IMG/VR virus record: IMGVR_UViG_3300031867_000045
Coordinates: 1-64,000 of that record
DNA: 64,000 bases
Reading direction: 5' to 3' (one strand)
Origin: a virus
Under the pieces are notes generated by a model. The model saw nothing but the letters and a program-made list of their open reading frames with translations. It was not told the origin of the DNA and ran no database searches. The stretch's first letter is position 1; every line of letters starts with the position of its first letter. The position numbers and the translations under genes are program-made. Shown here piece by piece: positions 4,934 to 51,181 of the stretch.

Positions 4934-5550
4934 ATTTCTATCGGTTTTAGACTCCATTTATATCCAAAAGCTGTTTTACTCAAACCTCTGGCACAATCAC
5001 TAATATGACCTGGTTTTTTACCAATAAATCTTGCAGCATCAGAATATGATTCAAATGTATGTAATAAGTTGCCGTTAAGATCATATTGATAAATAATCAT
5101 ATGATTTTCTAAATTACTATAATCTTTATTATTAATTGCGTAGTCAATAATATTTTCTGCCGTAAAGTCATCCACACAAAGAGGGATTGAAGCATTTACT
5201 TTTCTTCTACTAAATGCCAATGTCCTTGTAGAACCATTGCAAAATTCAATCGGTAAAAGATAACATTGATTATTGTAATATGTTCCAATCATATCAATTT
5301 CATTTTTCGTGTATTCATGTTTTACATTTTCTTTGCCGGAAGTTGTAATTGAATATGCTTTAATTTTGATTCCCGTTTCAACTTCTACGCAACTTTTTAT
5401 TTGAACTCTTAATAATAAGTTATTAACATCAAGTATAAAATCGTATTTGCAATCTTCTCCAATAGGAACACTCACATTATATCCAAGAGAAGTTAGATAT
5501 GCCTCACACAATAATTCTGTTGCTATCCCTTTTGCTTTACCATTAAACAA
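4924..5550 (-). CDS. homing-endonuclease-like protein (PD-(D/E)XK-like N-domain plus C-terminal NUMOD/AP2-like DNA-binding repeat)
   Basis: 208 aa. N-terminal motif ELLCEAYLTSLGY...DxxxDFIL..RVQIKS resembles a restriction-endonuclease-like core. C-terminal IYQYDLNGNLLHTFESYSDAARFIG..GxISDCARGLSKTAFGYKW is a typical homing-endonuclease DNA-binding module. The stop lies in the 10 nt overlap with the 5' acceptor strand of tRNA-Ser. Confidence 0.5.
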   Translation of the reverse strand: MFNGKAKGIATELLCEAYLTSLGYNVSVPIGEDCKYDFILDVNNLLLRVQIKSCVEVETGIKIKAYSITTSGKENVKHEYTKNEIDMIGTYYNNQCYLLPIEFCNGSTRTLAFSRRKVNASIPLCVDDFTAENIIDYAINNKDYSNLENHMIIYQYDLNGNLLHTFESYSDAARFIGKKPGHISDCARGLSKTAFGYKWSLKPIEMER

Positions 5551-5989
5551 ATTATTCGTTCACCTATTCGCCTATTCAATTTATGGAACTTTGCACTCCG
5601 CAAATATTTAATTTATCACGGAGTGCTTACCGCTCCATATATCCCGCGACTTCCGCCAAAACTATTATGTATCAAATGGTTGCCTTTTGCGAGCCGCGAG
5701 GAATATAGTTTGTTACCTTAGCTGTTATCTCTTTGAATGTTGCAATCAATCTCAGAAGTAGGTTGCTATCCTAATCGTTTATCATCAATTCCGTAGCCAA
5801 TTCGGAAAGATGGATAATCGAAGCCGTGAATCCCGACTCAACATATTGTTCATTTCGCTAAAATGTCACAAAACACGCTGCTTTAGTTGAAACAGTACCC
5901 CATTCTTTGCGGTAAAGAATATGAAAACCCCAATTTCCATAAAGTCTATCGGATAACCAAACTTTGCGGCTAAAGGCAGTTCGACCTTT

Positions 5990-6065
5990 TGGCTGGGTCA
6001 CTCGGAATCGAACCGAGAGCGGTGGGGTCAAAGCCCACTATGTTGACCGGTTACACCACAACCCA
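5990..6065 (-). tRNA. tRNA-Gln (anticodon TTG)
   Basis: 76 nt; anticodon stem gtggg/cccac, loop ctTTGac; T-arm ctcgg-ttcgatt-ccgag; CCA encoded. Confidence 0.6.
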
Positions 6066-6225
6066 TCGTGTGATCGAGCCACAGGACTCACACCTGCGGG
6101 AATGAAGGTTAGGGTTGACTGCGCACATCTCACCTAACAGCATTTATTATTAATCTCGTTCTTTTACTTTACTTCATTACTTCATAATCCGTGCTTTTAA
6201 GAGATTTTCTTTTTGGTCAAGATGT

Positions 6226-6296
6226 TGTGGGAGTCGAACCACACCCTTCCGCCCTTACGCGGGCAGCGTGCTATCCGCTACACTATCACTCTAATC
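6226..6296 (-). tRNA. atypical tRNA-like element (possible pseudogene), anticodon unresolved
   Basis: Canonical D-arm (tagtgtagcggatagcac) and T-loop (ggttcgactccc) are present, but I cannot fold a 7-nt anticodon loop or a matching acceptor stem. Confidence 0.3.
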
Positions 6297-6387
6297 TCTG
6301 CCACCCATCAACAAAATTGTACGGTTTCATTAATGGTTGTACGTTGTGGCACATTTCATATGGCTTTATACTCACTACTCGATCAAA

Positions 6388-6461
6388 TGGAGCGAATAAA
6401 GGGATTTGAACCCTCACAATCAGAATGGAAATCTGATGTGCTACCGTTACACCATATCCGC
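6388..6461 (-). tRNA. tRNA-Gly (anticodon TCC)
   Basis: 74 nt; anticodon stem tcaga/tctga, loop ttTCCat; T-loop ttcaaat; CCA encoded; acceptor gcggata/tattcgc. Confidence 0.7.
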
Positions 6462-6524
6462 AGATTTGTGGGAGGGAAGCGAGGTGTGAAACCCTCCCAC
6501 GAGGTAATCTATAGTTACAAATTA

Positions 6525-8174
6525 TTAGGTGTTATCTGTATTTTCCGGCAAGGTGTCCTTTTTCTGAACGCCATCGGCAGGTACTACCTGAGTAGTAGAT
6601 AGCAGACCCTTTACAGGTTCGGCGATGCTACCCACCAATCCACGAAGTTCATCATTGATCGGCTTGCCGTTAAGGGCTTCATTCTGAACATTCAGAGTTT
6701 TCATCAGCGCAGGAATACTGGATAAGGTATCGACAAGAACGTTGCCGGAACCACTGCCCTGAGAACTTCCGCCGAAGTTGATAAACTCAGCCTTGCTACC
6801 AACTGAACCCATAAGTTCCGCGGCTTTGGTTGCAATCTGCACTTTACCCTCTGTTTCGATCTTCAACTTCTCGATCTCGAAGTTTACTTTCTCGTTAGAC
6901 GCTCTCGCTTCTGCAAGTGCGCGTTCACCTTCGGCTTGTGCCATAAGTTTCTGCTTTTCTACCTCAGCTTCCGCAAGACCTTTCTGCTTGATGACTTCCG
7001 CATCGGCAAGACCTTGCTGTTTTGCAACCTCAGCTTGTGCAAGACCTTTCTGCTTGGTAACGTCAGCTTCGGCATTACCTTTCTGCTTGATGACTTCCGC
7101 AGAAGCATTACCCTCTGTCTTAACCTTTTCCGCTTCTGCTTGTGCTGCGATCTTGATGGCATCCGCGTGGTTTCGTGATACCTGCACCTCTGCCTCTGCA
7201 CTGATAGTCTTTACATTCGCTTCCGCTTCGGCTTCGATGCGCTTCTTCTTCTTTTCTGATTCTGCTCTTGTGGAGATAACTTCCTGCTCCTTGATTGCTG
7301 CGAGATTTGCCTGTTCCTGCTTGACAACCTCAACACGACCCTTTTGCTGTTCTACCTCCTGCGCTCGAATGGTTCTCTGCAACTGACCGGCAACTTCGGC
7401 ATCGGCGTCTGCCTTATCAGTTTCAACCTTGAACGCAGCCATTTTCAGTTTATTATCTCTTTCTTTCTCAGCGATAGCCAACTCGGATTCCAATTCGGTC
7501 TGAGAAGCTGTACGCTCAGATTCAGCGTTTTGAGTACGGATAGCCTGATCTACCTTTGCTTTCTTGCTTTCGGCTTCACGGCGCTTATCCTGCATATCAA
7601 GTTCGGCAATGTTATCATAATAACCATTGTTGTCGTTGATGTCTTGGATGTTAAGGCTTACAAGTTCCATACCCATGTTGAGCATTTCATCCTGAATAAT
7701 ATCCTTAACCTTATTAGCAAATACCGCCTTTTCAGATAGTACACTTTCGGGGGTCATTGATGCTACTACATCACGAACACCACCCATAAGTGTCATTCTG
7801 GTGTCGCTGATAATCGCATCCTTTCCTCTTTCCTTAAAGGAAATGATTGCTTTCAGCAACGTTTCCGGATTTGAAGTATCGGGGCGAATCTGCGCCGTCC
7901 AGTCAATAGTAATCGGTACTGATGTTGCCGTCATAATCTCGTCACCATTTGCCGTTACCGTTAGCATTGACAAATCAAAATAATCATACTTGCGAATAAT
8001 CGGCATTACGAACGCACCGCCCGAAACATGAATTTGCGGTTTCTTGCCGCCCGTTACGATCAGTGCCTTGTCTACGCTTGCGACCTTATACATTGATTTT
8101 CCGATCAGGAAGATAGCCACAAGGATAACCAACGCAATTCCGACAGGAATGAGGATTGATAAATATTGTTCCAT
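6525..8174 (-). CDS. SPFH/band-7 (flotillin/YqiK-like) membrane protein with a long Ala/Glu/Lys-rich repeat tract
   Basis: 549 aa with an N-terminal TM helix and a band-7 core. It contains an 11-aa tandem repeat (KQKGLAEAEVx, about 6 copies, also visible as ~33-bp DNA repeats at 6950-7110) and a long coiled-coil. Confidence 0.65.
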   Translation of the reverse strand: MEQYLSILIPVGIALVILVAIFLIGKSMYKVASVDKALIVTGGKKPQIHVSGGAFVMPIIRKYDYFDLSMLTVTANGDEIMTATSVPITIDWTAQIRPDTSNPETLLKAIISFKERGKDAIISDTRMTLMGGVRDVVASMTPESVLSEKAVFANKVKDIIQDEMLNMGMELVSLNIQDINDNNGYYDNIAELDMQDKRREAESKKAKVDQAIRTQNAESERTASQTELESELAIAEKERDNKLKMAAFKVETDKADADAEVAGQLQRTIRAQEVEQQKGRVEVVKQEQANLAAIKEQEVISTRAESEKKKKRIEAEAEANVKTISAEAEVQVSRNHADAIKIAAQAEAEKVKTEGNASAEVIKQKGNAEADVTKQKGLAQAEVAKQQGLADAEVIKQKGLAEAEVEKQKLMAQAEGERALAEARASNEKVNFEIEKLKIETEGKVQIATKAAELMGSVGSKAEFINFGGSSQGSGSGNVLVDTLSSIPALMKTLNVQNEALNGKPINDELRGLVGSIAEPVKGLLSTTQVVPADGVQKKDTLPENTDNT

Positions 8175-8320: not shown

Positions 8321-9061
8321 TTAGAATGTATACCCGTCCATTAATCTCATTTTGAATTTATTTTTCTGATGGAGTGCATCAATCTTGTTCTTTACTGCCC
8401 CATCTTCGCAAATGCCTGTCCGAATATACCGATCAAGCGTTTCGTATGTAAAACCCAGGTTTTCCTCGTCAGTCTTTCCGCACAAACCATCTGATGGCTC
8501 TTTATCCATCAAATAGTCCGATAATCCGAGAGCATACCCAATGTCAATGACTTCACTTTTTGTAAACGGGGCAAGCGGCGACAAATCACCAACAGAATCT
8601 CCGTATCTCGTTGAATATCCGATATAGTCCTCAGATAAATTGCAAGTATTGACAACTCTACCGTTACTGCTCTGTGAAACAGCGTATAATGCAGCCATGC
8701 GGATTCTCGCAGGGAGATTGGTAGTTGTCTGACCGGAAATATTAAGAGTAGGCTCTTTTTCCATTCCGTCTAAAATTCCATCTACGGAATTGCCGATATT
8801 GATGGTAAAACTCTTAATTCTAAGAGTATTCACAAGCGTTTCAGCATATTTAATATCGTCCTGCTCGTGGTCTGGAAGTAAAACGCCGATGACGCGGTTT
8901 TCTCCCAAAGCCTTTACGCACAACGCGGCAACCACAGAGCTATCAATTCCGCCGGAAATTCCGACAATGGCTTTTCCAAAATTGCTATTCTTTCTGAACC
9001 AATCCTTAATCCATTCAGCACACTTTTCAGCATGATAATTTCCAAATCCAAATCTATTCAT
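8321..9061 (-). CDS. nadE: NH3-dependent NAD+ synthetase
   Basis: 246 aa; SGGIDS PP-loop motif and overall NadE-like sequence (GISGGIDSSVVAAL...). Confidence 0.75.
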   Translation of the reverse strand: MNRFGFGNYHAEKCAEWIKDWFRKNSNFGKAIVGISGGIDSSVVAALCVKALGENRVIGVLLPDHEQDDIKYAETLVNTLRIKSFTINIGNSVDGILDGMEKEPTLNISGQTTTNLPARIRMAALYAVSQSSNGRVVNTCNLSEDYIGYSTRYGDSVGDLSPLAPFTKSEVIDIGYALGLSDYLMDKEPSDGLCGKTDEENLGFTYETLDRYIRTGICEDGAVKNKIDALHQKNKFKMRLMDGYTF

Positions 9062-10530
9062 TAGAAATCACCGCCGTGCAAAGTTTTTCTGATTTCTTTC
9101 AGACTGGTTTCTTTCAGCATTTCACCATCACGGAAAATAGGCTTTAACATATTGCAAGGATCATTACTTGCTTCTTCCCAAGTCTTTTGATCTGTATAAG
9201 CAATCCCGCCATAATAATCCTCATAAACAAGACAACAACCCTTTTGAGAAGTCTTGAATCCGCCCTCTTTCGGGTCTTTGAAAATGGGAGTAGGCTTTCC
9301 GTCAATCTCACAATATGTCGCCTTAATACAAGAACTGAAAGTATCACGAGTAAACGGTTTTAGAATCCCATCTTCTTCAATGCACTGGAATGAGAACGAA
9401 CCGACACCGAGAGATACATTACAAGCCGCAAATCCGTTTTCTTTGAGAATTTCATAAATCTTCTCGCAACGCTGAACGGTAATTGAATCACCGTACAGAG
9501 CTTTCACACGAGGATCGAGGACTTTATATCCCTTGCTATTAATATAACCGCCGAACTGATCCCATAACTTGAATACCGTCTTTGTTACGACTTCCACGCA
9601 ATCGCCGGAATCTCCGCGCATAAGCATACAACCATTATGGTTCATAATTTCCTTTTTGAGTTTCGGAAGTACGTTATCAATTACATTCCAGTAATCATAA
9701 GAATCCAAAACGCAAGAAAATGATGTATTCGGGTAAATCTCCGTCAACAGTCTGCGGAGCAAAGTAATTTCATCACCGTCAACCGCAAAATTAGAACACA
9801 TTACAGAATGTTCGGTACTCGGAGCGCCAAATCCAACAGGTTCATTTTTGCAATCACAATTATAATTCTTTTCCAAATACGGAATTGCGGGAACCGTTGC
9901 AGTATTCAAGAATGAAAGCAACCAACCCGCAGCCGCCTTCGTTGCAGACTGTAAACATTCCTCACCGCGAAAATCAAAATCTCCCAACGCTCTTGCTCTC
10001 GGCATATCGTCGTCACAGGTTTCAGCATAATACTTGTTCACGATTTCACGATAAGTTGCGCCGACGGTGGCAGCCAACATGGGGTGCCACATTTCAGCCG
10101 AGATCAGCGATTCAAGCGACTGAGGAAGCCATGCAAAATCGGGATGGGTATTTGTGATTCCGAACATCGGAACGTGCATAGGCACTTTCGTTCCTTCGGG
10201 CAACGCCACAATTTCAATGGGTAAATATCCGAGATTATGCAGTTTCTTGATTTTGTTGATATTATATGTATCTTTTCCAAGAGTGGCGTCCATGATTCTT
10301 TGATATTCAACCAAAATCAGGTCGAGGGGCTTTTCAAAAAATTCTCTGTTGAAGTAATCAATCAGATATTCCTTAATAAATCCCTGCAATCCAAAGAATA
10401 CAACTTCATTCCAGCGCTTTACTCTGCTCATTCTCGGAGTAAAATAAGATACCGATTTTGTGATCTTTTCCGGCAACATTTCAGCGTGTACCGCCTTATA
10501 GTAGTCGATCAATAACATCGGATTCGTCAT
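9061..10530 (-). CDS. nadV: nicotinamide phosphoribosyltransferase (NadV/NAMPT)
   Basis: 489 aa; NAMPT-like blocks (DSYDYWNVI, LMRGDSGD, GVGSFSFQ...TRDTF) and the right length. Confidence 0.75.
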   Translation of the reverse strand: MTNPMLLIDYYKAVHAEMLPEKITKSVSYFTPRMSRVKRWNEVVFFGLQGFIKEYLIDYFNREFFEKPLDLILVEYQRIMDATLGKDTYNINKIKKLHNLGYLPIEIVALPEGTKVPMHVPMFGITNTHPDFAWLPQSLESLISAEMWHPMLAATVGATYREIVNKYYAETCDDDMPRARALGDFDFRGEECLQSATKAAAGWLLSFLNTATVPAIPYLEKNYNCDCKNEPVGFGAPSTEHSVMCSNFAVDGDEITLLRRLLTEIYPNTSFSCVLDSYDYWNVIDNVLPKLKKEIMNHNGCMLMRGDSGDCVEVVTKTVFKLWDQFGGYINSKGYKVLDPRVKALYGDSITVQRCEKIYEILKENGFAACNVSLGVGSFSFQCIEEDGILKPFTRDTFSSCIKATYCEIDGKPTPIFKDPKEGGFKTSQKGCCLVYEDYYGGIAYTDQKTWEEASNDPCNMLKPIFRDGEMLKETSLKEIRKTLHGGDF

Positions 10531-11393
10531 AGATTAAACACCTCGATTTTAGATGGCATTAAGTCAATATCTTTCGCATACTTCTGCGTACTCTTGACAA
10601 AAATGCTATCTGTAGTATATAGTTTCTCGATTAAATCTCCGTGTAACAATTCACCACGAAAAACGGTAAATTCACAATGAGTTACAAATAGATATATCTT
10701 ATCCGCGCCGAGTTCTTTTAACTTCTTCGCAGAATGTAAGAATGTTCCGCCTTTACTGCAAATATCATCAATGATTAAAACTATTTTGTTTTTAATCAAA
10801 TTTGTATCTCCGCAAACATCAAGCCCAAGAATATTTCCAGTTTCCCAATCTCGCCGTTTGATACCAAAAGCGTATGGTCGATTGATCTTGCCGGAATACC
10901 GTTTCATGGCACCTTCATCGGGAAAGAATATCGTTGGATTTGTTATGTAATTATCCTTGCAAACATTCTTAATTGCCTGTTCGATATAGGGAGTAGGTTC
11001 CAAAACGGTCAAATTATCGAACAACGCTTCACTCACAGAAGAATGAGGGTCTAAGACAACCACATTCAAGAATTTCAGCGCATTGATAAATTCCGCAAAA
11101 TATTTCAAAGTGAAAACATCCGATTTTCCCTTTACCCTATCCATTCTGGCGTTCGGAATATACGGCAAGAATAGCTCAACATCATAACCCAATCTTTGCA
11201 GGTGTTTTGTCAGAAATAAGATTGCTGCCATTTCACCGTCATTCTCGTAATGCCATGAAATAGTCACGGATTCTTGAATAGGCTCGACAGACTTCAACTC
11301 GGGTTTCAAGTGCAAAGTTCCATCGGGAAAATGATCGAGGACAACTTCGTTTCCATCAATTTTAATCATTCTGTTACCTCGTCGATCTGGCAA
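10527..11393 (-). CDS. prs: ribose-phosphate pyrophosphokinase (PRPP synthetase)
   Basis: 288 aa; PRPP-binding loop IVLIIDDICSKGGTF and PRPP synthetase N-domain. Confidence 0.7.
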   Translation of the reverse strand: MPDRRGNRMIKIDGNEVVLDHFPDGTLHLKPELKSVEPIQESVTISWHYENDGEMAAILFLTKHLQRLGYDVELFLPYIPNARMDRVKGKSDVFTLKYFAEFINALKFLNVVVLDPHSSVSEALFDNLTVLEPTPYIEQAIKNVCKDNYITNPTIFFPDEGAMKRYSGKINRPYAFGIKRRDWETGNILGLDVCGDTNLIKNKIVLIIDDICSKGGTFLHSAKKLKELGADKIYLFVTHCEFTVFRGELLHGDLIEKLYTTDSIFVKSTQKYAKDIDLMPSKIEVFNL

Positions 11394-21238: not shown

Positions 21239-22243
21239 TTTTTTCTTGAAAAAAATGCTCAATAATTGAACACTTTTTCAGCCGATTTTGACGATAAAAT
21301 TACCATTTGATTTACATTGTTATTTGCTTAGTTTTTTATATATTCTTTCTCTATATTGGTTTACTTTCTTTTGGTATATATTTCCTTTGACCATATCCAA
21401 TATTCTCAAAGCATCATTATACCTCTTTCCAGAAATGTAAAGATCAACGAGCCTAAAAGTCCAGCTCATACTATCAAAGGCTAAACCGCCATTTTGAAAA
21501 ATCAATTCCCAAAAAGATGTGATTTTTTCGTAATCACAATCATTTTCATATTGTTCTTCCGCCTTATTGATTGCCTCAATTTGCATTTCTTGCAATACCA
21601 ATATTTGATATTGCCTCGGAGCAACCTCTTTAAATCTTTCTAATTCTGATTTATCTAATGGGAGTATTCTTTTTACTTTTTTACCAATATACATATTTCT
21701 TACCTCTTATATTCATAATTTTCCGCGCCGGTGATATACTTCTGAAAATCTACGCGAATCAAATCATCGTTTCCGATCTTTTTCACTCCGCTGCCGAATG
21801 CAATTCTTCCGTTTGCTCCGACAAAGTTAATTGTCTTGTTTCCATTCACCGCCATAATCTCGGCATAACATCTTTCTGTCGGCTTTGCGCCGTCGCAAAA
21901 GGTGAATCCCTCGTCCTCGGCAAGCTGCATAAACTTTTCGCCGATTGCCACGTTTGCAAGATATACATATACTCTGCCGTTTTTCTTGCTTAATTCTTCG
22001 ATTGTTCTCATTGATATTTTCCTTTCAAAATAGAATTTTCGTAAAATAAAATCCTATCTTAACCGATAGGATATATCTCACTCCTATCGGTCAAGCATTA
22101 CCACCTTGCCTATTTATCGTCAGATTTTCCGCAAATTGCCGATTGATATGGTAGGTTGGTGTACGGTCATCGGGCTTGCCCCTCGCGTACTCTATATAGG
22201 ACTTATTCTATTACTTATAGTATAGCCAGATTTTCCGGTATTG

Positions 22244-37226: not shown

Positions 37227-37622
37227 TTAGATGAATTGAATATCTGATTCGGTAATTTCTACCATAACAGATTCTTGATTCAATTCGGTTTTAATATCAC
37301 TAACCATATCATGCAAGGATTCGATCATGCTATCGCTTGCAATTTCAACGCGGATTGACGGCTCATTAACAATGTTACCGGTAGATTGCATTTTGTAATA
37401 GCCGTTACATTCGATCATCGTAAAAGCGAAAATATCATAGACATTTAATAAGATATTAGCTATAATATTTTTTGCGGATTCAGTGCCGATCTTTTGTGAT
37501 TCAGTGTCCTTATCGAATAAACCGATTGTTAATACTGTTTTTGTCATTGTAATTACCTCCTGATTTGATTGCTTTTTGATTTCGAGTATTTTCTTGATTG
37601 CAAGGCTATTATATAATATCAT
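37227..37622 (-). CDS. hypothetical protein, first gene of the leftward block
   Basis: 131 aa; preceded by TTGACA-17 bp-TATAAT, the motif and an AGGAGG RBS (37575-37640). Confidence 0.45.
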   Translation of the reverse strand: MILYNSLAIKKILEIKKQSNQEVITMTKTVLTIGLFDKDTESQKIGTESAKNIIANILLNVYDIFAFTMIECNGYYKMQSTGNIVNEPSIRVEIASDSMIESLHDMVSDIKTELNQESVMVEITESDIQFI

Positions 37623-37640
37623 TTTAGTATTGTCAATAGA

Positions 37641-38970
37641 TTATTTAAACTTTTTTGATGAATTATTGCATTTTGGCGGATTGCACAAACCAACATGATA
37701 TTACTTGTATAATTTGCACAATGCCGGGATCGTGCTGCTATTACTGGATATAGTATTATATATTATACTTATTATATACCACAATATTATATTGCTATAA
37801 AAGAATATTACATACTGTAATATGATATCGGATCAATTACTATTTGTATATTTTATTATTCTATAATAGAATATTGTATAGTCCTGGATCATGCTTATTA
37901 TTCTATTGTAGAATTATAATTTTGTGGGATAAAGTACCGTTTATTGGACTTTGTTTGTATTGAGTACAATAAATTGGACTTTGTAAAGTACATTATTGCG
38001 ATGATATAACTTTAATTGTGATGATTAAATTTGATTGAATTGTGATTATTTTTGATTAAATTTGAGGGAATTTGACTGAGTTTGCTTTTAGGTGTAAAGC
38101 ATTTTACTTTACACCTCTCGAAAAATCTGAAAATCCTTTATTTCTTTTAAAGCATAATAATTTCATAGAATCCATCGGGATCATGCTACAATTCCAAAAT
38201 GTGAATAAAACATTTATTTGATGACTATATTGTAATTCTGTTTTTTGCACTATTACAGAATTAAAGCCCAAAAATTGAGCATTTATACTACTTGCCTACT
38301 TGATAGGTAGGTAGGGGGTAGGTTTACATCTCGAACATCTGTTCGAGCCGGATGCCGGTTTTAATGTGCTCCCCTCTACTCTCACCTCAAAATTTAAATC
38401 CCCCTTACCTGTTCAATTTTTGAACACTCACCGAAAATTACAGTCAACAATTAAAGGTGTTCAATAATTGGTACTTTTTCTGAAAATTAGTCGTTTATCG
38501 AAAACGCAAAAAATTTATTAAAGTGTTCAATAACTGATACTTTTTTGGTGAAATTTTCGACGTACCGAAAACTGAGTAAAAATCCCGCAATTTTTCGTTT
38601 TTATAAAAGCTCAGTTTTTGAACAAAAATATTTTAAGGTAAACGATCAAAACAATCGATCATGGTGGTTTCGAGATAAAAGTTGCGGAAAATTGATGAAA
38701 ACATTTCGGTAATTTTGCTCCGAAATTCTGGTAAGCAACCCGAAAAATCATTCCGAAAATTACCTTAAAACGAAACTGCGACCGCAACTTAATCTATTTA
38801 CTATATACTATACGTTACTTATATAATTACATTGTATATAGATTAAGTAAAGTATATAATTACTATACATAACGTATAGTAAATAATAATTACTATAAGT
38901 AATGTATAGTAATTAATATATATATAATATATATACCTATTTATATGCGATTTTTTAGATCAATTTAAAC
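37641..38970. promoter_or_regulatory. large non-coding divergent control region with several repeat families (candidate replication origin or regulatory hub)
   Basis: No ORF of 60 aa or more. Three copies of GGGATC(G/A)TGCT-type sites (about 37725, 37883, 38173). Perfect inverted repeats ggtgtaaag/ctttacacc and tcgaaca/tgttcga. Two ~32-nt direct repeats (gtgttcaataa-tg-tactttttt) at about 38456 and 38520. At least 8 CCGAAAA repeats at 38400-38760. Palindrome array B at 38760-38960. Confidence 0.5.
38760..38960. repeat. AT-rich 29-bp palindrome array, copy B
   Basis: aattactatacataacgtatagtaa and aattactataagtaatgtatagtaatta; ends tatatgcgatttttt like copy A. Confidence 0.6.
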
Positions 38971-38974
38971 TTAT

Positions 38975-39025
38975 TCAAGAAATATCTCGAAAAGACTTGA
39001 CAACCGAGGAAATATGCTCTACAAT
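38975..39025 (+). promoter_or_regulatory. rightward promoter cassette (motif, TTGACA-17 bp-TACAAT)
   Basis: TCAAGAAATATCTCGAAAAGAC-TTGACA-accgaggaaatatgctc-TACAAT, followed by aacctgcgggattgcaggtt hairpin, then GAGG RBS and ATG at 39085. Confidence 0.7.
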
Positions 39026-39084
39026 GAATATTAGAACATTAAATCAAACCTGCGGGATTGCAGGTTCTTTTATTTGAGGTGTTT

Positions 39085-40234: not shown

Positions 40235-43048
40235 TTGGAGCAAAAAAGCTGTCATCGTCTTGTTTATAAGATTGACAGTTCAATGTTAAAGAGGGCAAAT
40301 TGGAAGCTCAATTTATCACTTCAAACCGCCATGAGAACTTGCCCCGATGTTATTGTTGCACTGAACGATAGCCAGTGTTTGAGATTCATTGATGAAATCA
40401 ATGGCGTCGCAGATGTCAATAATAAAGTTCGAGCTATCCAAAACAAAATCAAAAAAATAAAGAAGAAGCCGAAAAGCAGAGAGAATCTTAAACTGATTAA
40501 CTGCTATTACGAAACTCTTTATGGTTTACAATTTCAGCGCGACTATATCAGCGTTGTAATGAATAGCAAAGAAGACTATGATCGGGCTAATTTAGGGTTC
40601 TCAATAAATTATGGCTTAATTGACAATAAAGAGTGTATTATTCATTACCGCCGTTTTTTAGGCACGAACGGCGGTATCAAGAAATCCACTATTGTATATG
40701 TCAATGAACAAATCTATACAGAGTTGAAACGCCGACTTGATAATGGCAGAAATCCAAACGGAGAATTTGTACCTGCAAAATTAGAAGCCTATCAAGGTTT
40801 GATTTGTTCTGGTTCCATTCCTCTCCCATCTCCAAAAGGAGTGATTGTCGTTAGAGATTGTATCACCCATTTTAAGGAAGATGTTATACTAATTGATGAC
40901 AGTGGAGAAGGCGAACCAAAATTAACATACGAAGACAATTATGAAATTGAACATAATGATTCTGATGGATATGGGTTAATGACACCGGAATATTCACGTG
41001 TTGTTAATAATTTTCTTTGCGGAGAGGATAAACCGATTTCCGGAATGAATACTCGTTCTGCATTTACTAAGGGTATGCTTTACACCTTTGATTTTAAAGA
41101 ATTTGCAGAAAAGATAGCAGGTACTTTTGAGGTCGAGGACGTATGGGGAGATAAGCGCGATATCCGAGATGCCGATGTAATACTCACGGAATCCATGCTC
41201 AAATTGTGGTCAAGTTATGATAGTTGGGAAGATTATCTTGAAAATTGCAAAAAAAACAATTATCACTTGTCGGCAACAAAGACTACTCCCGATCAATTAG
41301 AAAACGTCCGAGATACGAACTATCAATTTTTGCAATCGTATGAGTTTTCAGACGATGATCTGTATAATTTGTGTTTGCCGACCATCAAAGAAATTAAGGA
41401 TGTAATTGGTTTAGACTACCGTAAAAGTTTAACGTTTCTTGCCGGATTCGGTTTAGACGACAATACAGCATTTAGTCAAAACCTTAATTCATATATTAAG
41501 GCATTGATGGTTGAGCCTAAATTAATCAATGATCCGTTTATCCGAAAGAAAATATACCATATGATTCGTAAACGAATTGAAATGGGTGAGCGTGGCGCAA
41601 TTCGTATTAAGGCGAATTACGCTATGATAAGTGGTGATCCATACGCACTTTGCCAGTCTATTTTTAATCTTACCGTTACAGGATTGTTAAAAGCAGGAGA
41701 AGTATATCACAAATATTGGATTGATCGCGGTTCGGATGAAATAGCTTGTTTCCGTGCTCCGATGACGTGTCACAATAATATCCGCAAAATGAAACTCTCG
41801 CGCTCACCCGAAGCTGCTTATTGGTATCGTTACATTGATACGGCACTGATCTACAATGCGTGGGATAGTTCATGCGAGGCTATGAACGGCGCGGATAAAG
41901 ACGGCGATACTAATATGTGTACCGATGATCCAATTATTGTTCAAAACACAAAACCACTTCGGACAATAATTTGTTTACAGAAAAACGCAAAAAAAATCAT
42001 TCCTACCGAGGAATCTATTATTGAAGCAAATAAATTAGCTTTTAATGATGAAATCGGAGAAGTAACGAACCGAGTTACAAGCATGATTTGTATTGCCGAT
42101 GGTTTTCCAAAGGAATCAGAAGAATATAAGGTTTTGCAATACCGCATTATGTGTGGTCAGTTATTCCAGCAAAATACAATAGACCGAGCAAAAGGTATTA
42201 TTTCAAAATCCATGCCCGTTCATTGGTATTCAATGCGAGATAATCTTATCGGAGAAGATGATAATGAGGAATCAAAAGCAAAAAAGATATTCAATCAAAA
42301 AATTGTTGCTTCTCGGAAACCTTATTTTATGGGATATGTTTATCCTAAACTTCGTGCTGAAAATAATACTTACATTAAAAATAATACTTTAGGTGCAATT
42401 CGCCGCTTTAGTGAATTTGGTATTAATGATATTACCGATTTGATTTCATATGAAAACCCAACTCCTGAAATGAAGGAATATTTGGATTACTACAATAAGC
42501 TGACGCCAGTTGATAATAATAAATGTGTTATTAATCGAATTGCATGGTTATTTGAATCAGAGTTCAAAACGTTTATGTCGGATTATTCAAGAAAGATACG
42601 CGAGTCAGATAATTGCATATTTGATTATAGAATCATGAAATCCGGCGTTGAATATAGCCAGTTGCAGTATGATAAAATATCGGAAATATACAAAGAGTAC
42701 CAACTAAGGACTAAAGAATACCGCAAAGAATCTCGAATCAAAAAGGTCGAGAAGTATGACAATATCGAGCAACACATGATTTTGGTAAATTTCTTTAAAC
42801 GAGAGTGTGAGGAAATTTGCCCGAATGAATATGAATTATGTGATATTCTTTTGGATATGTGCTATCAAGCGGAAACTTCAAAACAATTTGTATGGGATAT
42901 GTGCGGAGATACTATCCTTCAAAATCTTTTAAAGAAACATGATTATGAATTAACATATCCTAAACTGGTTTCCGATCAAGGTGAATTTGAATATTGCGGA
43001 GAACAATTCATTATGCAGAAAACGCGAATCGAGGTGATTGATGTATGA
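40235..43048 (+). CDS. large protein (937 aa) with a NADFDGD-like motif; candidate non-canonical two-barrel RNA polymerase (YonO/QDE-1-like)
   Basis: TTG start 9 nt after AGGAG. The motif AMNGADKDGDTNM resembles the metal-binding NADFDGD loop of multisubunit RNAP beta-prime, YonO, and the DYDGD of QDE-1. No other polymerase family motif (PolB, primase) is evident. Confidence 0.35.
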   Translation: MEQKSCHRLVYKIDSSMLKRANWKLNLSLQTAMRTCPDVIVALNDSQCLRFIDEINGVADVNNKVRAIQNKIKKIKKKPKSRENLKLINCYYETLYGLQFQRDYISVVMNSKEDYDRANLGFSINYGLIDNKECIIHYRRFLGTNGGIKKSTIVYVNEQIYTELKRRLDNGRNPNGEFVPAKLEAYQGLICSGSIPLPSPKGVIVVRDCITHFKEDVILIDDSGEGEPKLTYEDNYEIEHNDSDGYGLMTPEYSRVVNNFLCGEDKPISGMNTRSAFTKGMLYTFDFKEFAEKIAGTFEVEDVWGDKRDIRDADVILTESMLKLWSSYDSWEDYLENCKKNNYHLSATKTTPDQLENVRDTNYQFLQSYEFSDDDLYNLCLPTIKEIKDVIGLDYRKSLTFLAGFGLDDNTAFSQNLNSYIKALMVEPKLINDPFIRKKIYHMIRKRIEMGERGAIRIKANYAMISGDPYALCQSIFNLTVTGLLKAGEVYHKYWIDRGSDEIACFRAPMTCHNNIRKMKLSRSPEAAYWYRYIDTALIYNAWDSSCEAMNGADKDGDTNMCTDDPIIVQNTKPLRTIICLQKNAKKIIPTEESIIEANKLAFNDEIGEVTNRVTSMICIADGFPKESEEYKVLQYRIMCGQLFQQNTIDRAKGIISKSMPVHWYSMRDNLIGEDDNEESKAKKIFNQKIVASRKPYFMGYVYPKLRAENNTYIKNNTLGAIRRFSEFGINDITDLISYENPTPEMKEYLDYYNKLTPVDNNKCVINRIAWLFESEFKTFMSDYSRKIRESDNCIFDYRIMKSGVEYSQLQYDKISEIYKEYQLRTKEYRKESRIKKVEKYDNIEQHMILVNFFKRECEEICPNEYELCDILLDMCYQAETSKQFVWDMCGDTILQNLLKKHDYELTYPKLVSDQGEFEYCGEQFIMQKTRIEVIDV

Positions 43049-44162: not shown

Positions 44163-44239
44163 GCGGATATGGTGTTCAACGGTTAGCACGTTGGCTTGCC
44201 AAGTCAAAAGTACGAGTTCAAATCTCGTTATTCGCTCCA
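44163..44239 (+). tRNA. tRNA-Gly (anticodon GCC)
   Basis: 77 nt; anticodon loop ttGCCaa; T-loop ttcaaat; CCA encoded; acceptor identical to the minus-strand tRNA-Gly(TCC). Confidence 0.65.
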
Positions 44240-44311
44240 TATAAGACACACGCAGCAATTATTCAGAATAATTTTTGCGGTTAAAAAATATTCATGGTGT
44301 CTTGTTCTTAT

Positions 44312-44388
44312 TGCGGGATGGAGCAGATGGTCAGCTCGTCTGCCTCATAAGCAGAAGGTCGTGGGTTCGAGTCCCACTCCCGCAACCA
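44312..44388 (+). tRNA. tRNA-Met or tRNA-Ile2 (anticodon CAT)
   Basis: 77 nt; D-stem gagc/gctc; anticodon stem tctgc/gcaga, loop ctCATaa; T-arm gtggg-ttcgagt-cccac; U1-A72. Confidence 0.6.
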
Positions 44389-44404
44389 CTAATTTAATCA
44401 ATAT

Positions 44405-44489
44405 GGGAGAATCGTATAGCGGCAATTACGGCAGACTGTAAATCTGTTCCCGTAAGGGTTCGATGGTTCGAGTCCATCTTCTCCCACCA
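44405..44489 (+). tRNA. tRNA-Tyr (anticodon GTA), long variable arm
   Basis: 85 nt; anticodon stem gcaga/tctgt, loop ctGTAaa; long variable arm; T-arm gatgg-ttcgagt-ccatc; CCA encoded. Confidence 0.65.
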
Positions 44490-44492
44490 TAT

Positions 44493-44569
44493 GCTTGTGT
44501 AGCTTACGAGGTCGGAGCATCGGTCTGAAAAACCGAAGGATGGTGGTTCGATACCACCCTCAAGCACCA
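44493..44569 (+). tRNA. tRNA-Phe (anticodon GAA)
   Basis: 77 nt; anticodon stem tcggt/accga, loop ctGAAaa; T-arm ggtgg-ttcgata-ccacc; CCA encoded. Confidence 0.6.
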
Positions 44570-44572
44570 TAT

Positions 44573-44648
44573 GGTTCCGTAGTTCAAATGGATAAAACAC
44601 CGCCCTGTCACGGCGGAGTTATGGGTTCAATCCCCGTCGGAATCGCCA
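44573..44648 (+). tRNA. tRNA-Asp (anticodon GTC)
   Basis: 76 nt; anticodon stem ccgcc/ggcgg, loop ctGTCac; T-loop ttcaatc; CCA encoded. Confidence 0.65.
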
Positions 44649-44651
44649 AAT

Positions 44652-44726
44652 GTAGGTGTAAGTCAACGGTAGACGGCTTGCTTTGGGAGCAAGTAGCTGG
44701 GGGTTCGAGTCCTCTCACCTGCACCA
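44652..44726 (+). tRNA. tRNA-Pro (anticodon TGG)
   Basis: 75 nt; anticodon stem cttgc/gcaag, loop ttTGGga; T-loop ttcgagt; CCA encoded. Confidence 0.6.
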
Positions 44727-44776
44727 AACAGAGTTCGGCACGCCTCTGAATATGCGTACCATGCCGAGCCATATAT

Positions 44777-44852
44777 TCCCACGTAGTTCAGTTGATAGAA
44801 CTCTCGACTGTTAATCGAGTAGTCGCAAGTTTGAGTCTTGCCGTGGGAGCCA
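44777..44852 (+). tRNA. tRNA-Asn (anticodon GTT)
   Basis: 76 nt; anticodon stem ctcga/tcgag, loop ctGTTaa; CCA encoded. Confidence 0.55.
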
Positions 44853-44855
44853 AAC

Positions 44856-44930
44856 GGGGGATTAGTTTAATAGGTAAAATCCTCGCCTTGCACGCGAGGG
44901 TCAGCGGTTCGAGTCCGCTATCCTCCACCA
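44856..44930 (+). tRNA. tRNA-Ala (anticodon TGC)
   Basis: 75 nt; anticodon stem ctcgc/gcgag, loop ctTGCac; T-arm agcgg-ttcgagt-ccgct; CCA encoded. Confidence 0.65.
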
Positions 44931-45038
44931 AATACATAAACAGGACAAGGAGTAATTAACCTTTCTCGGTGCTGCTACACCGAGATTACTGTTTGTGTAT
45001 AGAATAAATAGACAAATTTTAGCAGAAAGGAGTTTATT

Positions 45039-45794
45039 ATGATAGGAATATATAAATTTACAAACAAATTAACAGGCAAATCTTATATCGGACAAAGTAG
45101 AGATATACATAAAAGATACATTCAACATAAATGTAGGCACGAAATATGTTTACACGAAGATGCGCCAAAAGAAGATACATACTTCCATTCAATGCTTAGA
45201 CATTATGGATTTCATAATTTTGATTTTGAAATTTTAGAAGAATGTGAAATATCGGAATTGAACGAAAAGGAAGTTTATTATATTCAAAAATACAACACTT
45301 TATATCCGAATGGTTATAACAAAGATAAAGGTGGAAACACACCTCATCCTAATGCACTTAAATCTTATGAAGATGTTGATGAAATAATAGAACTGTTAAA
45401 AACAACAAAACTTTCAAATATCGAAATTGGAAACAAATATGGAGTATCAGACCAATCAATTTCAGATATAAACAATGGTAGGACTTGGATAAGAGATGAT
45501 ATTAAATATCCAATCCGAAATACATTTGAAGCAAAAAAGATTATTTGGAAATGTAATTCATGTGGGAAAGTATTATCTGGTAAAACCAAAAGCGGATTAT
45601 GCAGAAGTTGTTTGAATAAAAACATACAGGATAATTCTTCTATGCCTGATAAAGAAATATTATATAATTTATTATTACAATATTCGTTTACTTATGTGGG
45701 TGATAAATTTGGAGTTACCAGTAACGCTGTAAGAAAATGGTGTGACAAATATAATATCCCACGACATTCTTCATATTACAAAAATGTTGCTTAA
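45039..45794 (+). CDS. GIY-YIG homing endonuclease (I-TevI/Seg-like) with C-terminal zinc finger and HTH
   Basis: N-terminal GIYKFTNKLTGKSYIGQS...R...YFHSML..G..NFDFEILE...NEKEVYYIQKYNTLYPNGYN is a textbook GIY-YIG core; C-terminal CNSCG...CRSC zinc finger; sits inside the tRNA cluster. Confidence 0.75.
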   Translation: MIGIYKFTNKLTGKSYIGQSRDIHKRYIQHKCRHEICLHEDAPKEDTYFHSMLRHYGFHNFDFEILEECEISELNEKEVYYIQKYNTLYPNGYNKDKGGNTPHPNALKSYEDVDEIIELLKTTKLSNIEIGNKYGVSDQSISDINNGRTWIRDDIKYPIRNTFEAKKIIWKCNSCGKVLSGKTKSGLCRSCLNKNIQDNSSMPDKEILYNLLLQYSFTYVGDKFGVTSNAVRKWCDKYNIPRHSSYYKNVA

Positions 45795-45812
45795 TACCCG
45801 CAAGGGTAATAT

Positions 45813-45886
45813 GCTGAAATAGTATAATGGTAGTACCGCGGATTTGTAACCCGCTAATCTGAGTTCGACTCTCAGTTTCAGCTCCA
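45813..45886 (+). tRNA. tRNA-Thr (anticodon TGT)
   Basis: 74 nt; D-stem gtat/gtac; anticodon loop ttTGTaa; T-arm ctgag-ttcgact-ctcag; CCA encoded. Confidence 0.6.
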
Positions 45887-49414: not shown

Positions 49415-49720
49415 ATGGAGAAAGAAATGAGTAGAACAGAAATCGTAAAAGAATTGTTGGATAGAATGTTTGACGATCCAACACCTGAAAATAAACAATT
49501 ATGTGAAAATTTCTGTAATACTTTCACCGATATTATTATTGATACTTTGTTGGACGATCAAGAAATTAGATGGAAGGGATTGTTTACAATTAAAGTTGTT
49601 AATACGCCTCCGAGAAAAGGCAGAAATCCGGCAACAAATAAAGTGGAGGATTTTCCTGCTTCTAAGAAAGTCGTCTGTAAATTAAGTAGAAGTTTAAAAC
49701 AAATGATTAGTGGAAAGTGA
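49415..49720 (+). CDS. HU/IHF-family DNA-binding protein
   Basis: 101 aa; beta-arm signature RKGRNPATNKVEDFPASKKV matches the R-x-G-R-N-P-x-T-G motif. Confidence 0.6.
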   Translation: MEKEMSRTEIVKELLDRMFDDPTPENKQLCENFCNTFTDIIIDTLLDDQEIRWKGLFTIKVVNTPPRKGRNPATNKVEDFPASKKVVCKLSRSLKQMISGK

Positions 49721-50211
49721 TATATATTATGGAAATAATGAAATTTAAAGATATTGAGGATGTATACGGTTTTATGAGTGATATCGTTACATCTGATAGT
49801 AAGAACATTACTGCCGTGTTGTTTTATGAACAGGCAGAGGAATTAATGAGGCTATTTTTAGAAGACCTCGATGTAACGGTTGGTCATATTGAAATTGGAA
49901 ATCATGATTATAGTAATTATTCGCGTGAATATTACGTTTCAATAGATTCTGATTTGATTTTAGATGTATGTCCCGTTATGCCGCACTACAAACAAGATTT
50001 TGGGTACGTTCCAATTCAAGAAGCAGATATTATTTTATACGATGAAAGTGCAAAACAATCCATTGTAAGAATAAATGATTGTAAAGAATCATATCAAATT
50101 GAATTTGGATATGATGAAGATGAATGTGGAAATTGTTGCAACGATTGTTGCAGTTGCTCCAAGTCGCTTTGCACGGCGATTCGCTTGTTCATGAATTTAT
50201 TAAATGAATAA
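49717..50211 (+). CDS. hypothetical protein with C-terminal Cys cluster
   Basis: 164 aa; C-terminus CGNCCNDCCSCSKSLC. Confidence 0.4.
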   Translation: MIYIMEIMKFKDIEDVYGFMSDIVTSDSKNITAVLFYEQAEELMRLFLEDLDVTVGHIEIGNHDYSNYSREYYVSIDSDLILDVCPVMPHYKQDFGYVPIQEADIILYDESAKQSIVRINDCKESYQIEFGYDEDECGNCCNDCCSCSKSLCTAIRLFMNLLNE

Positions 50212-50260: not shown

Positions 50261-51181
50261 ATGCCAAAACCAACAGGGAAAAGCGAGTGCTGCTGTTGCG
50301 GTGAATCGCTCTCCCCCACTCATTTTTATAAATCCAATAGTGGATTTTATAAAACAGGTCGCTTACCTATTTGCCAAGATTGTTTTAAGGCAAAATTTGG
50401 GCAATATGCGGCTGAATATTTAAGTAATAAAAAGGCTATGCAACGAATGTGCATAGCCTTTGACATTTATTTCAACGAAGATGTTTTTGATAAATGTGAT
50501 AACAATGATGAAACAGTTATTGGAAATTATTTTCGGCAATTAAACTTATCACAATGTAAAGGAAAAACTTTTGAGCATACAATCAACGAGGGTAATTTCA
50601 CGTTATCCGGCGCAAGAAAAACCGTCAAAGATGGTGGTCGCGTTGCCGTGGTTGATGAATACGGAAACGAGAACGAAGAAGTATCTGTTGATCCTAAAGA
50701 TGTTGAACGCTGGGGTGAAGGATTAGACCCTGTTGATTATGTGAATCTCAATAACCATTATCAATATTTGAAAAATGCGAATCCTCATTGTGATAGCAAC
50801 CAAGAAATTTTTATAAACGATCTTTGTTACGCGAAAATGCAACAACTTCAATGCGTTCGCAGTCAAGATAGAGATGGGTTTAAGAAAATGGGCGAATATT
50901 ATAATGCAACATTTCAAAAGTCAGGTTTAAAAATATCTAACGACTCTGAAAATAAAGGGGACGATACCCTTGGAACTTGGCTTGGAAGAATTGCTCAGTA
51001 CACTCCCGAAGAATATTACAAAAATAAAACATTGTATCAGGATCACGATGGATTGAGAGATTACATCGAAAGGTTCTTATTGCGTCCATTAAGAAATTTA
51101 CAACATGGAACTAAAGATAGAGATAGAGAGTTCTATGTTAAGGAAGATGGTGAAACTCGTGAAATTGACAACTCCGACTAA
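50261..51181 (+). CDS. hypothetical protein with N-terminal zinc ribbon (small terminase candidate by position only)
   Basis: 306 aa; CCCCGES...CQDC ribbon; lies immediately upstream of and overlapping the large terminase ORF. Confidence 0.3.
   Translation: MPKPTGKSECCCCGESLSPTHFYKSNSGFYKTGRLPICQDCFKAKFGQYAAEYLSNKKAMQRMCIAFDIYFNEDVFDKCDNNDETVIGNYFRQLNLSQCKGKTFEHTINEGNFTLSGARKTVKDGGRVAVVDEYGNENEEVSVDPKDVERWGEGLDPVDYVNLNNHYQYLKNANPHCDSNQEIFINDLCYAKMQQLQCVRSQDRDGFKKMGEYYNATFQKSGLKISNDSENKGDDTLGTWLGRIAQYTPEEYYKNKTLYQDHDGLRDYIERFLLRPLRNLQHGTKDRDREFYVKEDGETREIDNSD

Follow-up and report, generated by a model that had tools for sequence, protein, structure and literature searches.

The subject of this study is an intergenic gap of about 1.5 kb (37548-39084) within a 64-kb stretch of viral DNA (IMG/VR record IMGVR_UViG_3300031867_000045, positions 1 to 64,000; hereafter the window), which originates from a large Firmicutes phage with an SPbeta-type late gene cluster. 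With moderate confidence, we read this gap as a composite region in which divergent early and late promoters, accompanied by operator-like dyads, are combined with a packaging start or terminus region, and its core is more likely a start of packaging than an origin of replication. Elements of both kinds, pac or terminus regions and divergent promoter regions, are well known. The new part is a signature, apparently undescribed, that is shared by the phages SPbeta, Perkons and PMBT24 and a large group of uncultured gut and rumen phages.

A scan of IMG/VR with the RNA polymerase (RNAP) protein encoded to the right of the gap, a homolog of the single-subunit RNAP YonO of SPbeta, yielded 34 loci from contigs of 100-170 kb (individual loci are given by L numbers). 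A gap of 1.2-2 kb, free of open reading frames (ORFs), was kept wherever a homolog of the gene on the left was present, in relatives whose RNAP is 60-83% identical, and the modules of the gap aligned in the same order. As judged from the sequence, this common order of modules is the strongest evidence that the region is more than a chance assembly of repeats. An nhmmer profile of the core detected 15 distinct loci, each on the RNAP strand and 5' of the RNAP gene. Near-invariant pieces are both promoters, a G-run, AATGTG, CTCTCACC, ACCGAAAA and TATACTATAC, while an array with a phase of ~10 bp and the dyads of three 66-bp units kept their position but changed in sequence by lineage.

Within the core lies the bipartite signature, which consists of GGGGGTAGGTTTACAT, 33 variable nt and AATGTG. 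ACAT and ATGTG lie 43 nt apart in 14 of 16 loci and 42 and 44 nt apart in the remaining two, compared to 33 nt in SPbeta and the SPbeta-like phage BUCT082. The inserted sequence is unrelated between loci (in the window it holds the palindrome CTCGAACATCTGTTCGAG and CCGGATGCCGG), and its folding gave a mean z-score of -0.7 on the plus and -0.9 on the minus strand when compared to shuffled sequences. A structured RNA was rejected for this segment, as neither strand displayed excess stability. The fixed spacing over variable, non-folding sequence, with 43 and 33 nt lying one helical turn apart, rather indicates a constraint at the DNA level than at the level of RNA. In a second, motif-first scan of IMG/VR, the signature was allowed to have any spacer of 20-50 nt. 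Six contigs were obtained, which had two spacer lengths only, 33 nt (the type of the window) and 23 nt (SPbeta-like prophages), and the flanks of all six (6/6) showed a homolog of the left gene or of YonO, or near-identity to the SPbeta element.

The signature is followed by a G-poor, C-rich tract, and between +40 and +140 the GC skew ranged from -0.33 to -0.93 in 16 of 16 family loci as well as in SPbeta, BUCT082, PMBT24 and Perkons. The three units, ~66 bp apart, each combine a lineage-specific dyad with a conserved CGAAAA. The dyads of the window are TGTTCAA-TTT-TTGAACA (once) and GTGTTCAATAAYTGRTAC (twice), and the third unit makes TTTTCG-N6-CGAAAA; the relatives keep ACCGAAAA but swap the dyad for CCCTCAAT..GAGG, CCCTAAAATAGAGG or CGAAAGTTTCG. 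As these dyads are symmetric through their centers, they suit dimeric proteins on double-stranded DNA rather than RNA hairpins. At the end of the core, a ATTCGGTATTTT.ACTCCGAAAATTTG block is conserved.

When the region was compared at the DNA level to 50,697 phage records, no match was obtained, and exact 34-mer scans of IMG/VR and metagenome contigs for the same strain and an exact-protein look-up of the left gene were likewise negative. The look-up of the right gene identified two Logan contigs, the starts of which are equivalents of 38090 and 38893. The contig starting at the equivalent of 38090 represents a 97%-identical strain. Both starts would fit breaks at repeats and provide weak evidence. 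Several assemblies (L021, L050) also break in the gap region or in AT-rich repeats.

Mapped ends of reference phages and a packaging model

The genome of SPbeta opens at a point (pac) between yonR and yonP, as determined by restriction mapping and read coverage (10.1101/2021.11.22.469490; PMC8270828). This pac is known as an interval that has never been dissected, and no similarity to the pac of SPP1 was found in a review (PMC8270828). In the orientation of yonO, the yonR-yonP interval contains GGGGGTATATTTACAT, followed after 22 nt by (A/G)ATGT and next by a strongly G-poor tract with CCCCTACTCTCAC and repeated TTACGAT. A homology test against this interval recovered the 16-nt motif, the phased ATGTG and the G-poor tract, albeit with modest statistics, the motifs of SPbeta and BUCT082 being the top nhmmer matches in an 83-kb test set (E = 0.012). 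In addition, a placement test revealed that the gap adjoins a yonP/yonO-type late cluster on the upstream side and is oriented with the terminase gene, which fits an SPbeta-like packaging start.

The distance of the signature from DNA ends could be read off in several phages. The BUCT082 record opens between ATATGT and CTTCGATTCCC, 198 nt before the motif, and in a MAFFT alignment its first bases correspond to ~38108-38117 of the window; counted from 38117, AATGTG ends after 252 bp, at 38368. The Psychrobacillus phage Perkons has a terminal repeat of 264 bp, which was defined by PhageTerm (PMC13245101). In YonO orientation, its end lies between AAGAAGT and CTTACGCTATTCCC, similar to the opening of BUCT082, GGGGGTATA is located 205 nt inside this end, and the inner edge of the repeat marks the start of the G-poor tract. 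For the Enterocloster phage PMBT24, PhageTerm placed the pac site at record position 1 (PMC11035940), and we found GGGGGGTAC at ~247 and behind it a tract in which G accounts for 1-3%. This pac element is 9.6 kb away from the RNAP gene, whereas the AT-rich promoter block has stayed beside it; this arrangement, with the AT-rich block at the RNAP gene and the G-run element elsewhere, is common to PMBT24 and the CB phages. Thus, promoter and packaging units are separable. In the Clostridium phage c-st, a CACTCT-rich, G-poor tract directly follows the 404-bp terminal repeat.

In the model we favor, the two host sigmaA promoters at the edges of the gap fire outward, the leftward one into a block of small genes and the rightward one into the operon that extends from the RNAP to the late genes. 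A packaging protein, i.e., the small terminase, perhaps aided by an HU-like protein, would bind the phased ~10-bp array and the dyad-plus-CCGAAAA units, and the DNA would be cut near 38090-38120. The ~250 bp from this cut to the signature TTTACAT-N-AATGTG, which ends at 38368, would correspond to the short terminal repeat or 'pac block' of the relatives, and packaging would then proceed rightward into the late genes. The promoters, the synteny, the conservation and the signature in common, with its distance from the mapped ends of the reference phages, are observations, whereas we infer the binding proteins, the position of the cut in the window phage and the operator roles.

Several points weigh against this model. 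The terminus of the window phage is placed by its likeness to the mapped ends of the reference phages, and the opening base of SPbeta is likewise placed via the start of the BUCT082 record and its likeness to the Perkons terminus. The sequence link to SPbeta is short, consisting of the 16-nt motif at the E-value given above, and is otherwise one of context, i.e., orientation, spacing, composition and synteny. In Perkons, another, weak candidate for the motif is located ~770 nt inside the end, and c-st does not have the G-run. Among the relatives, the distance between a conserved CGAAAAATC block, expected at the terminus, and the motif is ~125-220 nt, so that a fixed block of 250 bp is not general. 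The stem-loop-like covariation of a dyad at 38232-38264 is not explained by packaging. Finally, IMG/VR contigs of relatives (L017, L021), inspected as stand-ins for termini, end in tandem or AT-rich repeats and not at one point, and are uninformative in this respect.

If the model is correct, genome ends and the direction of packaging would be predictable from sequence for the whole group, which would help to orient metagenomic assemblies. It provides a testable candidate for the SPbeta-type pac signal, composed of the 16-nt G-run motif, the helically phased half-site and the G-poor tract, features that are common to cultured phages of Bacillus, Psychrobacillus and Enterocloster and to many uncultured gut and rumen phages of 100-170 kb.

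Replication, transcription and RNA as other readings

An earlier note on this DNA had proposed a replication origin or a lysis-lysogeny switch, and also mentioned small RNAs, but not a packaging start. We consider an origin unlikely. Under this reading, a phage initiator would recognize the phased repeats and the dyad-plus-CCGAAAA units as iterons, the AT-rich block at 38787-38946 would be the unwinding element, and replication would be bidirectional and possibly primed by a transcript. The gap has the lowest GC content in the window (0.29-0.31), it contains long AT-rich palindromes, and its repeat arrays are conserved in position and lineage-specific in sequence, as is the case for iterons. 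In lactococcal c2-type phages, the origin is located in the early/late intergenic region and requires a transcript, and the position of the gap at an early/late junction recalls this arrangement. The cumulative GC skew, which the earlier note had suggested to determine on the full genome and which we calculated for the window, reached its minimum at 37-39 kb. However, this is exactly where gene orientation switches, and the flip in skew is therefore inseparable from an effect of transcription. DnaA boxes (TTATCCACA, up to one mismatch) occurred at chance level, with 22 in the window versus 20.2 expected, and the one in the region, a single-mismatch site, did not belong to a cluster. The flanks do not encode an initiator, a helicase loader or another replication protein, and no replication domain was found in the flanking genes, which encode small proteins, a DnaJ-domain protein and membrane proteins. 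A ~10-bp phased array, 66-bp units and an AT-rich block are present, as would suit an iteron-type origin, but in a geometry unlike that of classical, abutting iterons of 17-22 bp. In addition, the homologous signature in the reference phages coincides with packaging starts and not with known origins, and the distance of 9 kb between the G-run element and the AT-rich divergent block in PMBT24 argues against a single obligatory origin. Replication of SPbeta was never mapped (PMC8270828), so that the homologous region could be an origin too, and both functions could coexist. The origin proposed in the earlier note thus rests on generic features, i.e., AT-richness, repeats and the confounded skew minimum, and as a caution for annotation, not every repeat-rich and AT-rich divergent gap is an origin.

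A purely transcriptional early/late switch, in which the internal repeats serve as operators or enhancer-like sites, with Spo0A and CodY as candidate host regulators, appears rather doubtful. Both consensus promoters are conserved, the center-symmetric dyads are typical of dimeric regulators, and a late operon headed by a promoter of consensus strength has to be kept under negative control. The 0A-box, the binding site of Spo0A, has the consensus TGNCGAA. Box-like sites in the window read T(A/G)CCGAA, and two relatives (L007, L009) have exact TGNCGAA boxes where others have TACCGAA. On the other hand, most internal sites are 250-900 bp away from either promoter, and no gene for a helix-turn-helix (HTH) repressor is present on the flanks. 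Moreover, the G-run signature and the G-poor tract are kept as far as SPbeta, where the promoter context is different, and track the packaging start, and in PMBT24 the pac site, where the element is located, is distant from the RNAP promoter. The lysis-lysogeny switch of the earlier note was rejected: the promoters it would require are present, but neither side has a gene for an HTH or Xre-type repressor, and the integrase-family gene is 22 kb away.

As a further alternative, the core could encode a non-coding or structured RNA of ~550 nt that extends rightward from the G-run, which we regard as very improbable. The orientation of the core is strictly conserved, the stem at 38232-38264 covaries, and the minimum free energy (MFE) of the plus strand had a z-score of -2.8. 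There is also a precedent, an unannotated non-coding RNA downstream of the YonO promoter of SPbeta, ahead of the YonO-transcribed late operon (PMC5467207). However, the minus strand folds about equally well (z = -2.4), the ACAT-ATGTG segment maintains its length and not its foldability, and the dyads are symmetric through their centers. The core has neither a consistent promoter ahead of it nor a terminator behind it. Rfam searches of the region yielded no match at gathering scores and none that was credible at the permissive threshold of E <= 10, and the counterparts in SPbeta, BUCT082 and Perkons did not yield any either. With no Rfam match and a central element that is fixed in length and folds no better than shuffled sequence, the small RNAs suggested earlier are poorly supported. 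In SPbeta, YonO starts in the yonN-yonK gap, as placed by the primer-extension oligonucleotides of the supplement, which map to 6575 and 6355 of the SPbeta sequence (L038), whereas the motif is located in the yonR-yonP gap (~10584). The G-run motif was rejected as a YonO promoter for this reason, and the position of the start also argues against an RNA initiated at the motif. The yonN-yonK gap is a second ORF-free gap of SPbeta, 1.68 kb in length (5154-6834) and downstream of yonO, which contains the YonO start and the unannotated RNA; the only Rfam match within it was a DUF3800-VIII RNA near the end (5410-5475).

Finally, the signature could be a new DNA-maturation signal of phages with a YonO polymerase, or an R-loop-primed origin fused to a packaging site, which we consider quite improbable. 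For example, the signature would form the inner boundary of a terminal repeat of ~250 bp, the processing of which would be coupled to transcription or pausing of the phage polymerase, in analogy to phage T7, where concatemer processing depends on T7 RNAP. GGGGGTA..TTTACAT, the fixed spacer, AATGTG and the G-poor tract occur from the Bacillus phage SPbeta to Clostridia phages of the gut and rumen, and apart from a YonO polymerase with 26% identity, the phages bearing them have little else in common.

Features of the gap and its gene context

The features of the gap and of the surrounding genes are given in the table below.

Positions of features in the 64-kb window; R is A or G, and strand is left empty where the feature has none or none was assigned.
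Position	Feature	Strand	Remarks
2438-3211	Thg1-like tRNA-His guanylyltransferase	-	auxiliary gene
8321-11393	NAD salvage set: NadE, NAPRTase/NAMPT-like, PRPP-synthetase-like	-	auxiliary genes
285-357(-), 4240-4692(-), 44163-45886(+)	tRNA genes and tmRNA		
37227-37547	first leftward gene	-	ATG at 37547, AGGAGG ribosome-binding site
37608-37636	leftward sigmaA-type promoter	-	TTGACA-17 nt-TATAAT; 12/12 consensus; drives small-gene block from 37227-37547(-)
37680-37689, 37713-37722	two operator-like sites (TTGCACAA twice): ATTGCACAAA, TTTGCACAAT		flank a TATAAT
37727-37736, 37886-37895, 38178-38187	three GGATCRTGCT sites	+	plus GGATCA at 37830
37934-37983	two GTAC-N8-GGACTTTG sites, 30 nt apart	+	like motifs 5' of the core in L003, L014, L020
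37995-38085	phased TGATT/TTGA array		period ~10-10.5 bp
38090-38136	palindrome AGGTGTAAAG-N7-CTTTACACCT, then CTCGAAAAATCTGAAAATCC		10-bp arms; predicted position of packaged-DNA end
38211-38762	conserved core, ~550 nt	+ (RNAP strand)	nhmmer profile
38232-38264	dyad/stem-loop GTAATTCTGT-N13-ACAGAATTAA		conserved TGCAC in spacer
38314-38368	bipartite signature	+	5' of RNAP gene in at least 13 loci
38369-38430	G-poor, C-rich tract CTCCCCTCTACTCTCACC...AAATCCCCC	+	GC skew -0.60
38407-38575	three units ~66 bp apart		CGAAAA at 38432, 38499, 38566
38586-38762	further CGAAA/CCGAAA sites		incl. inverted pair TTTCGG-N10-CCGAAA, 38704-38725; core end
38787-38946	AT-rich ACTATAC/GTATAGT dyad block		e.g., TTACTATAC-N5-GTATAGTAA at 38860-38882; ends in (AT)n run
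38997-39025	rightward sigmaA-type promoter	+	TTGACA-17 nt-TACAAT; 11/12 consensus; serves operon with YonO-like RNAP gene
39047-39075	5'-leader hairpin AACCTGC-GGGATT-GCAGGTT, then T-rich run	+	terminator-like match
39085	first rightward gene, start ATG	+	
45039-45794	GIY-YIG homing endonuclease	+	inside tRNA array
49415-49720	HU-like protein gene		
49717-50211	164-aa ORF		no functional family assigned; candidate small terminase only, not confidently identified
50261-51181	YonG-like ORF, 306 aa		no functional family assigned; candidate small terminase only, not confidently identified

The earlier note had described 37641-38970 as ORF-free and packed with repeats, and its observation is largely real, as the repeat families of the gap exceed chance. 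The largest ORFs inside this region have only 55 aa, and the true gene-free gap is even wider. Because the phage has a suppressor tRNA with the anticodon tta, hidden coding by stop recoding was considered and rejected: all six frames are closed, stops of all three types are present, and read-through of TAA, TAG or TGA does not open any frame preferentially in the gap. The AT-richness is borne out by comparison with the ~0.38 GC of the entire window. With regard to the individual motifs, the G-rich element is present (38296-38323), and the three GGGATC(G/A)TGCT sites exist as GGATCRTGCT, just two of them being preceded by a third G. The ggtgtaaag/ctttacacc palindrome is real, with arms GGTGTAAAG/CTTTACACC at 38091-38115 that are extended to 10 bp by a flanking A and T, and has a spacer of 7 nt instead of 5. 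The tcgaaca-type palindrome was found as CTCGAACA-TC-TGTTCGAG at 38330-38347, its arms of 8 nt being separated by 2 nt. The direct repeats occur in two copies at 38454 and 38520, 66 nt apart, but are 26 nt (88% identity) and not ~32 nt long. By contrast, 'eight or more' copies of CCGAAAA(T/C) were not confirmed; there are 3 strict copies (38431, 38565, 38753), and across the window the strict pattern is no more frequent than expected by chance. The looser CGAAAA is enriched in the gap, with 9 copies on both strands versus 2.2 expected by length, as is TGTTCAA with 5 copies versus 0.4 expected. A regulatory hub, also proposed earlier, is supported by the two outward, near-consensus sigmaA promoters, which are conserved in the relatives together with operator-like dyads.

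In seven aligned relatives, the TTGTCAA block of the leftward promoter is invariant, as are TTGACA and TAnAAT of the rightward one. The block of small genes served by the leftward promoter is presumably early. Paired TTGCAYAAT sites are found at the position equivalent to the operator-like sites in L004, L005, L011 and L016; of the 7 copies of TTGCA[CT]AA in the window, 2 are located at 37680-37722. Toward the rightward promoter, TATACTATAC in the AT-rich block is invariant among relatives, and in L017 the block has grown to ~400 bp of tandem repeats. This block could either control the rightward promoter from upstream or serve as a segment that melts easily. The stem of the leader hairpin covaries, with AACCTAC/GTAGGTT in L004 and CCGCC/GGTGG, including a G:T pair, in L011, and the hairpin, located ahead of the phage RNAP operon, may be an attenuator or an RNA-stabilizing element. 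Judged by sequence, the TTGCACAA sites, the ACTATAC/GTATAGT block and the leader hairpin are probably operators that time the two edge promoters.

In the left interior, GGATCRTGCT occurs exactly 3 times in the 64-kb window, all within the gap, versus 0.22 expected, and 0 of 100 shuffles reached 3. A role as family-wide signal was rejected, since the exact motif is present in 0 of 36 related loci; the closest relative, L003, has GGATCR/GGGATGA islands in the equivalent segment. GGATCRTGCT is a lineage-specific motif. For the TGATT array, Tandem Repeats Finder (TRF) reported periods of 10 (4.3 copies) and 21, and arrays with a period of ~8-10 bp and other unit sequences are located at the equivalent position in L003, L004, L009, L011 and L016. 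L011 shares the palindrome at 38091-38115, and all aligned relatives keep a CGAAAAATC-type block. The contig of L017 opens with 2.7 copies of a GC-rich tandem repeat of ~80 bp (1-230) with GATC(A/G)(G)CACG motifs, which is located at the site of the gap's variable left segment.

For the dyad at 38232-38264, 84.6% of the cells were paired, compared to 73% in shuffles and 26-39% when the partner was slid, and 7 of 10 pairs had compensatory changes on both sides across 16 loci. None of the models considered accounts for this dyad. Its right arm makes a TTGAC -35-like box in several relatives. Just 5' of the G-run, CTTGATA is located in the loop of a small hairpin (CCTAC..GTAGG; 38295-38311, plus strand). 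This heptamer is the nick core of pC194/phiX174-type rolling-circle initiators and was found only in the window phage and L017 (~800-822).

Long ORFs to the left of ~37.5 kb are without exception encoded on the minus strand, and those to the right of ~39.1 kb on the plus strand. The rightward operon opens with two small membrane or secreted proteins, followed by the YonO-type RNAP (40235-43048, plus strand, 937 aa) and later by terminase, portal and capsid genes. The RNAP is 39% identical to that of c-st, 37% to those of the Enterocloster phages PMBT24 and CB473P1 and 26% to SPbeta YonO. 3' of its gene lie tRNAs, a beta-CASP RNase, ClpP, an exonuclease, an HU-like protein, a YonG-like protein, the large terminase (TerL) and the portal protein, and the order RNAP-exonuclease-HU-YonG-like-TerL-portal matches yonO-yonN...yonJ...yonG-yonF of SPbeta. 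The leftward block encodes small proteins without known function, a DnaJ-domain protein, NAD-salvage enzymes and, 22 kb away, the integrase-family protein.

The YonO-like gene is uninterrupted in the window, and the RNAP gene is broken by insertions of 0.3-1 kb in L014, L017, L020, L021, L023, L032, L035 and c-st (L037, 7995-11928). These recur around residues 510, 556 and 650 and look like introns, inteins or homing-endonuclease insertions. The phage has 19 tRNA genes, one of them the suppressor, which reads UAA, and a tmRNA; despite this suppressor, the long late-gene ORFs stay intact under the standard code. A SAM riboswitch is located within the leftward block (22051-22202, minus strand), and the product of the first leftward gene had a match to the S-adenosylmethionine lyase family (E = 0.0017) that was below the Pfam cut-off. 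Together, these hint at a manipulation of host SAM.

Comparison with known systems

Iteron origins, such as lambda ori and those of theta plasmids, and the origins of c2-type phages resemble the gap as AT-rich, non-coding divergent junctions with repeated protein sites. In contrast to these, the window has no nearby initiator gene or DnaA boxes, and its units are 66 bp apart instead of abutting at ~20 bp. Classical pac sites have clusters of short repeats on both sides of the cut, phased or bent DNA and help by a histone-like protein; in P1 pac, clusters of TGATCA/G hexamers flank the cut, and in SPP1, pacL-pacC-pacR are combined with bent DNA. Counterparts in the window are the GATC-containing GGATCR repeats, the ~10-bp phased array and the HU gene of the phage. 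There is no sequence similarity to the pac sites of P1 or SPP1, the region of the window is much larger, and its terminase genes are 12 kb away.

Perkons and c-st encode a YonO homolog, as does the window phage. The Perkons terminus abuts an ORF-free region of 1.65 kb 5' of the YonO operon, with the G-run inside the end as described above, but its motif is degenerate (GGGGGTATAAAAATAT), while c-st has no motif and its YonO gene is disrupted and 18 kb from the end. Both have short terminal repeats, whereas the window phage, known from sequence alone, could have either fixed ends or headful packaging. PMBT24 shares with the window the YonO homolog and, ~250 nt past the pac site, a G-run with a long G-poor tract; its motif was not detected by the nhmmer model, and its pac and RNAP promoter units are apart, whereas they are fused in the window.

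The pac region of SPbeta is, like the gap, an ORF-free divergent interval directly 5' of the YonO RNAP and late-gene operon. On its far side SPbeta has the Xre-type repressor gene yonR, which has no counterpart in the window phage. GGGGGTA..TTTACAT has the same orientation in both, ATGT(G) follows at constant spacing, and the G-poor tract behind it includes a block like CCCCTACTCTCAC. The SPbeta spacer is one helical turn shorter, and only ~16 nt are otherwise alignable. In both, the G-poor tract is followed by a short repeated motif, TTACGAT in SPbeta and (A)CCGAAAA in the window.

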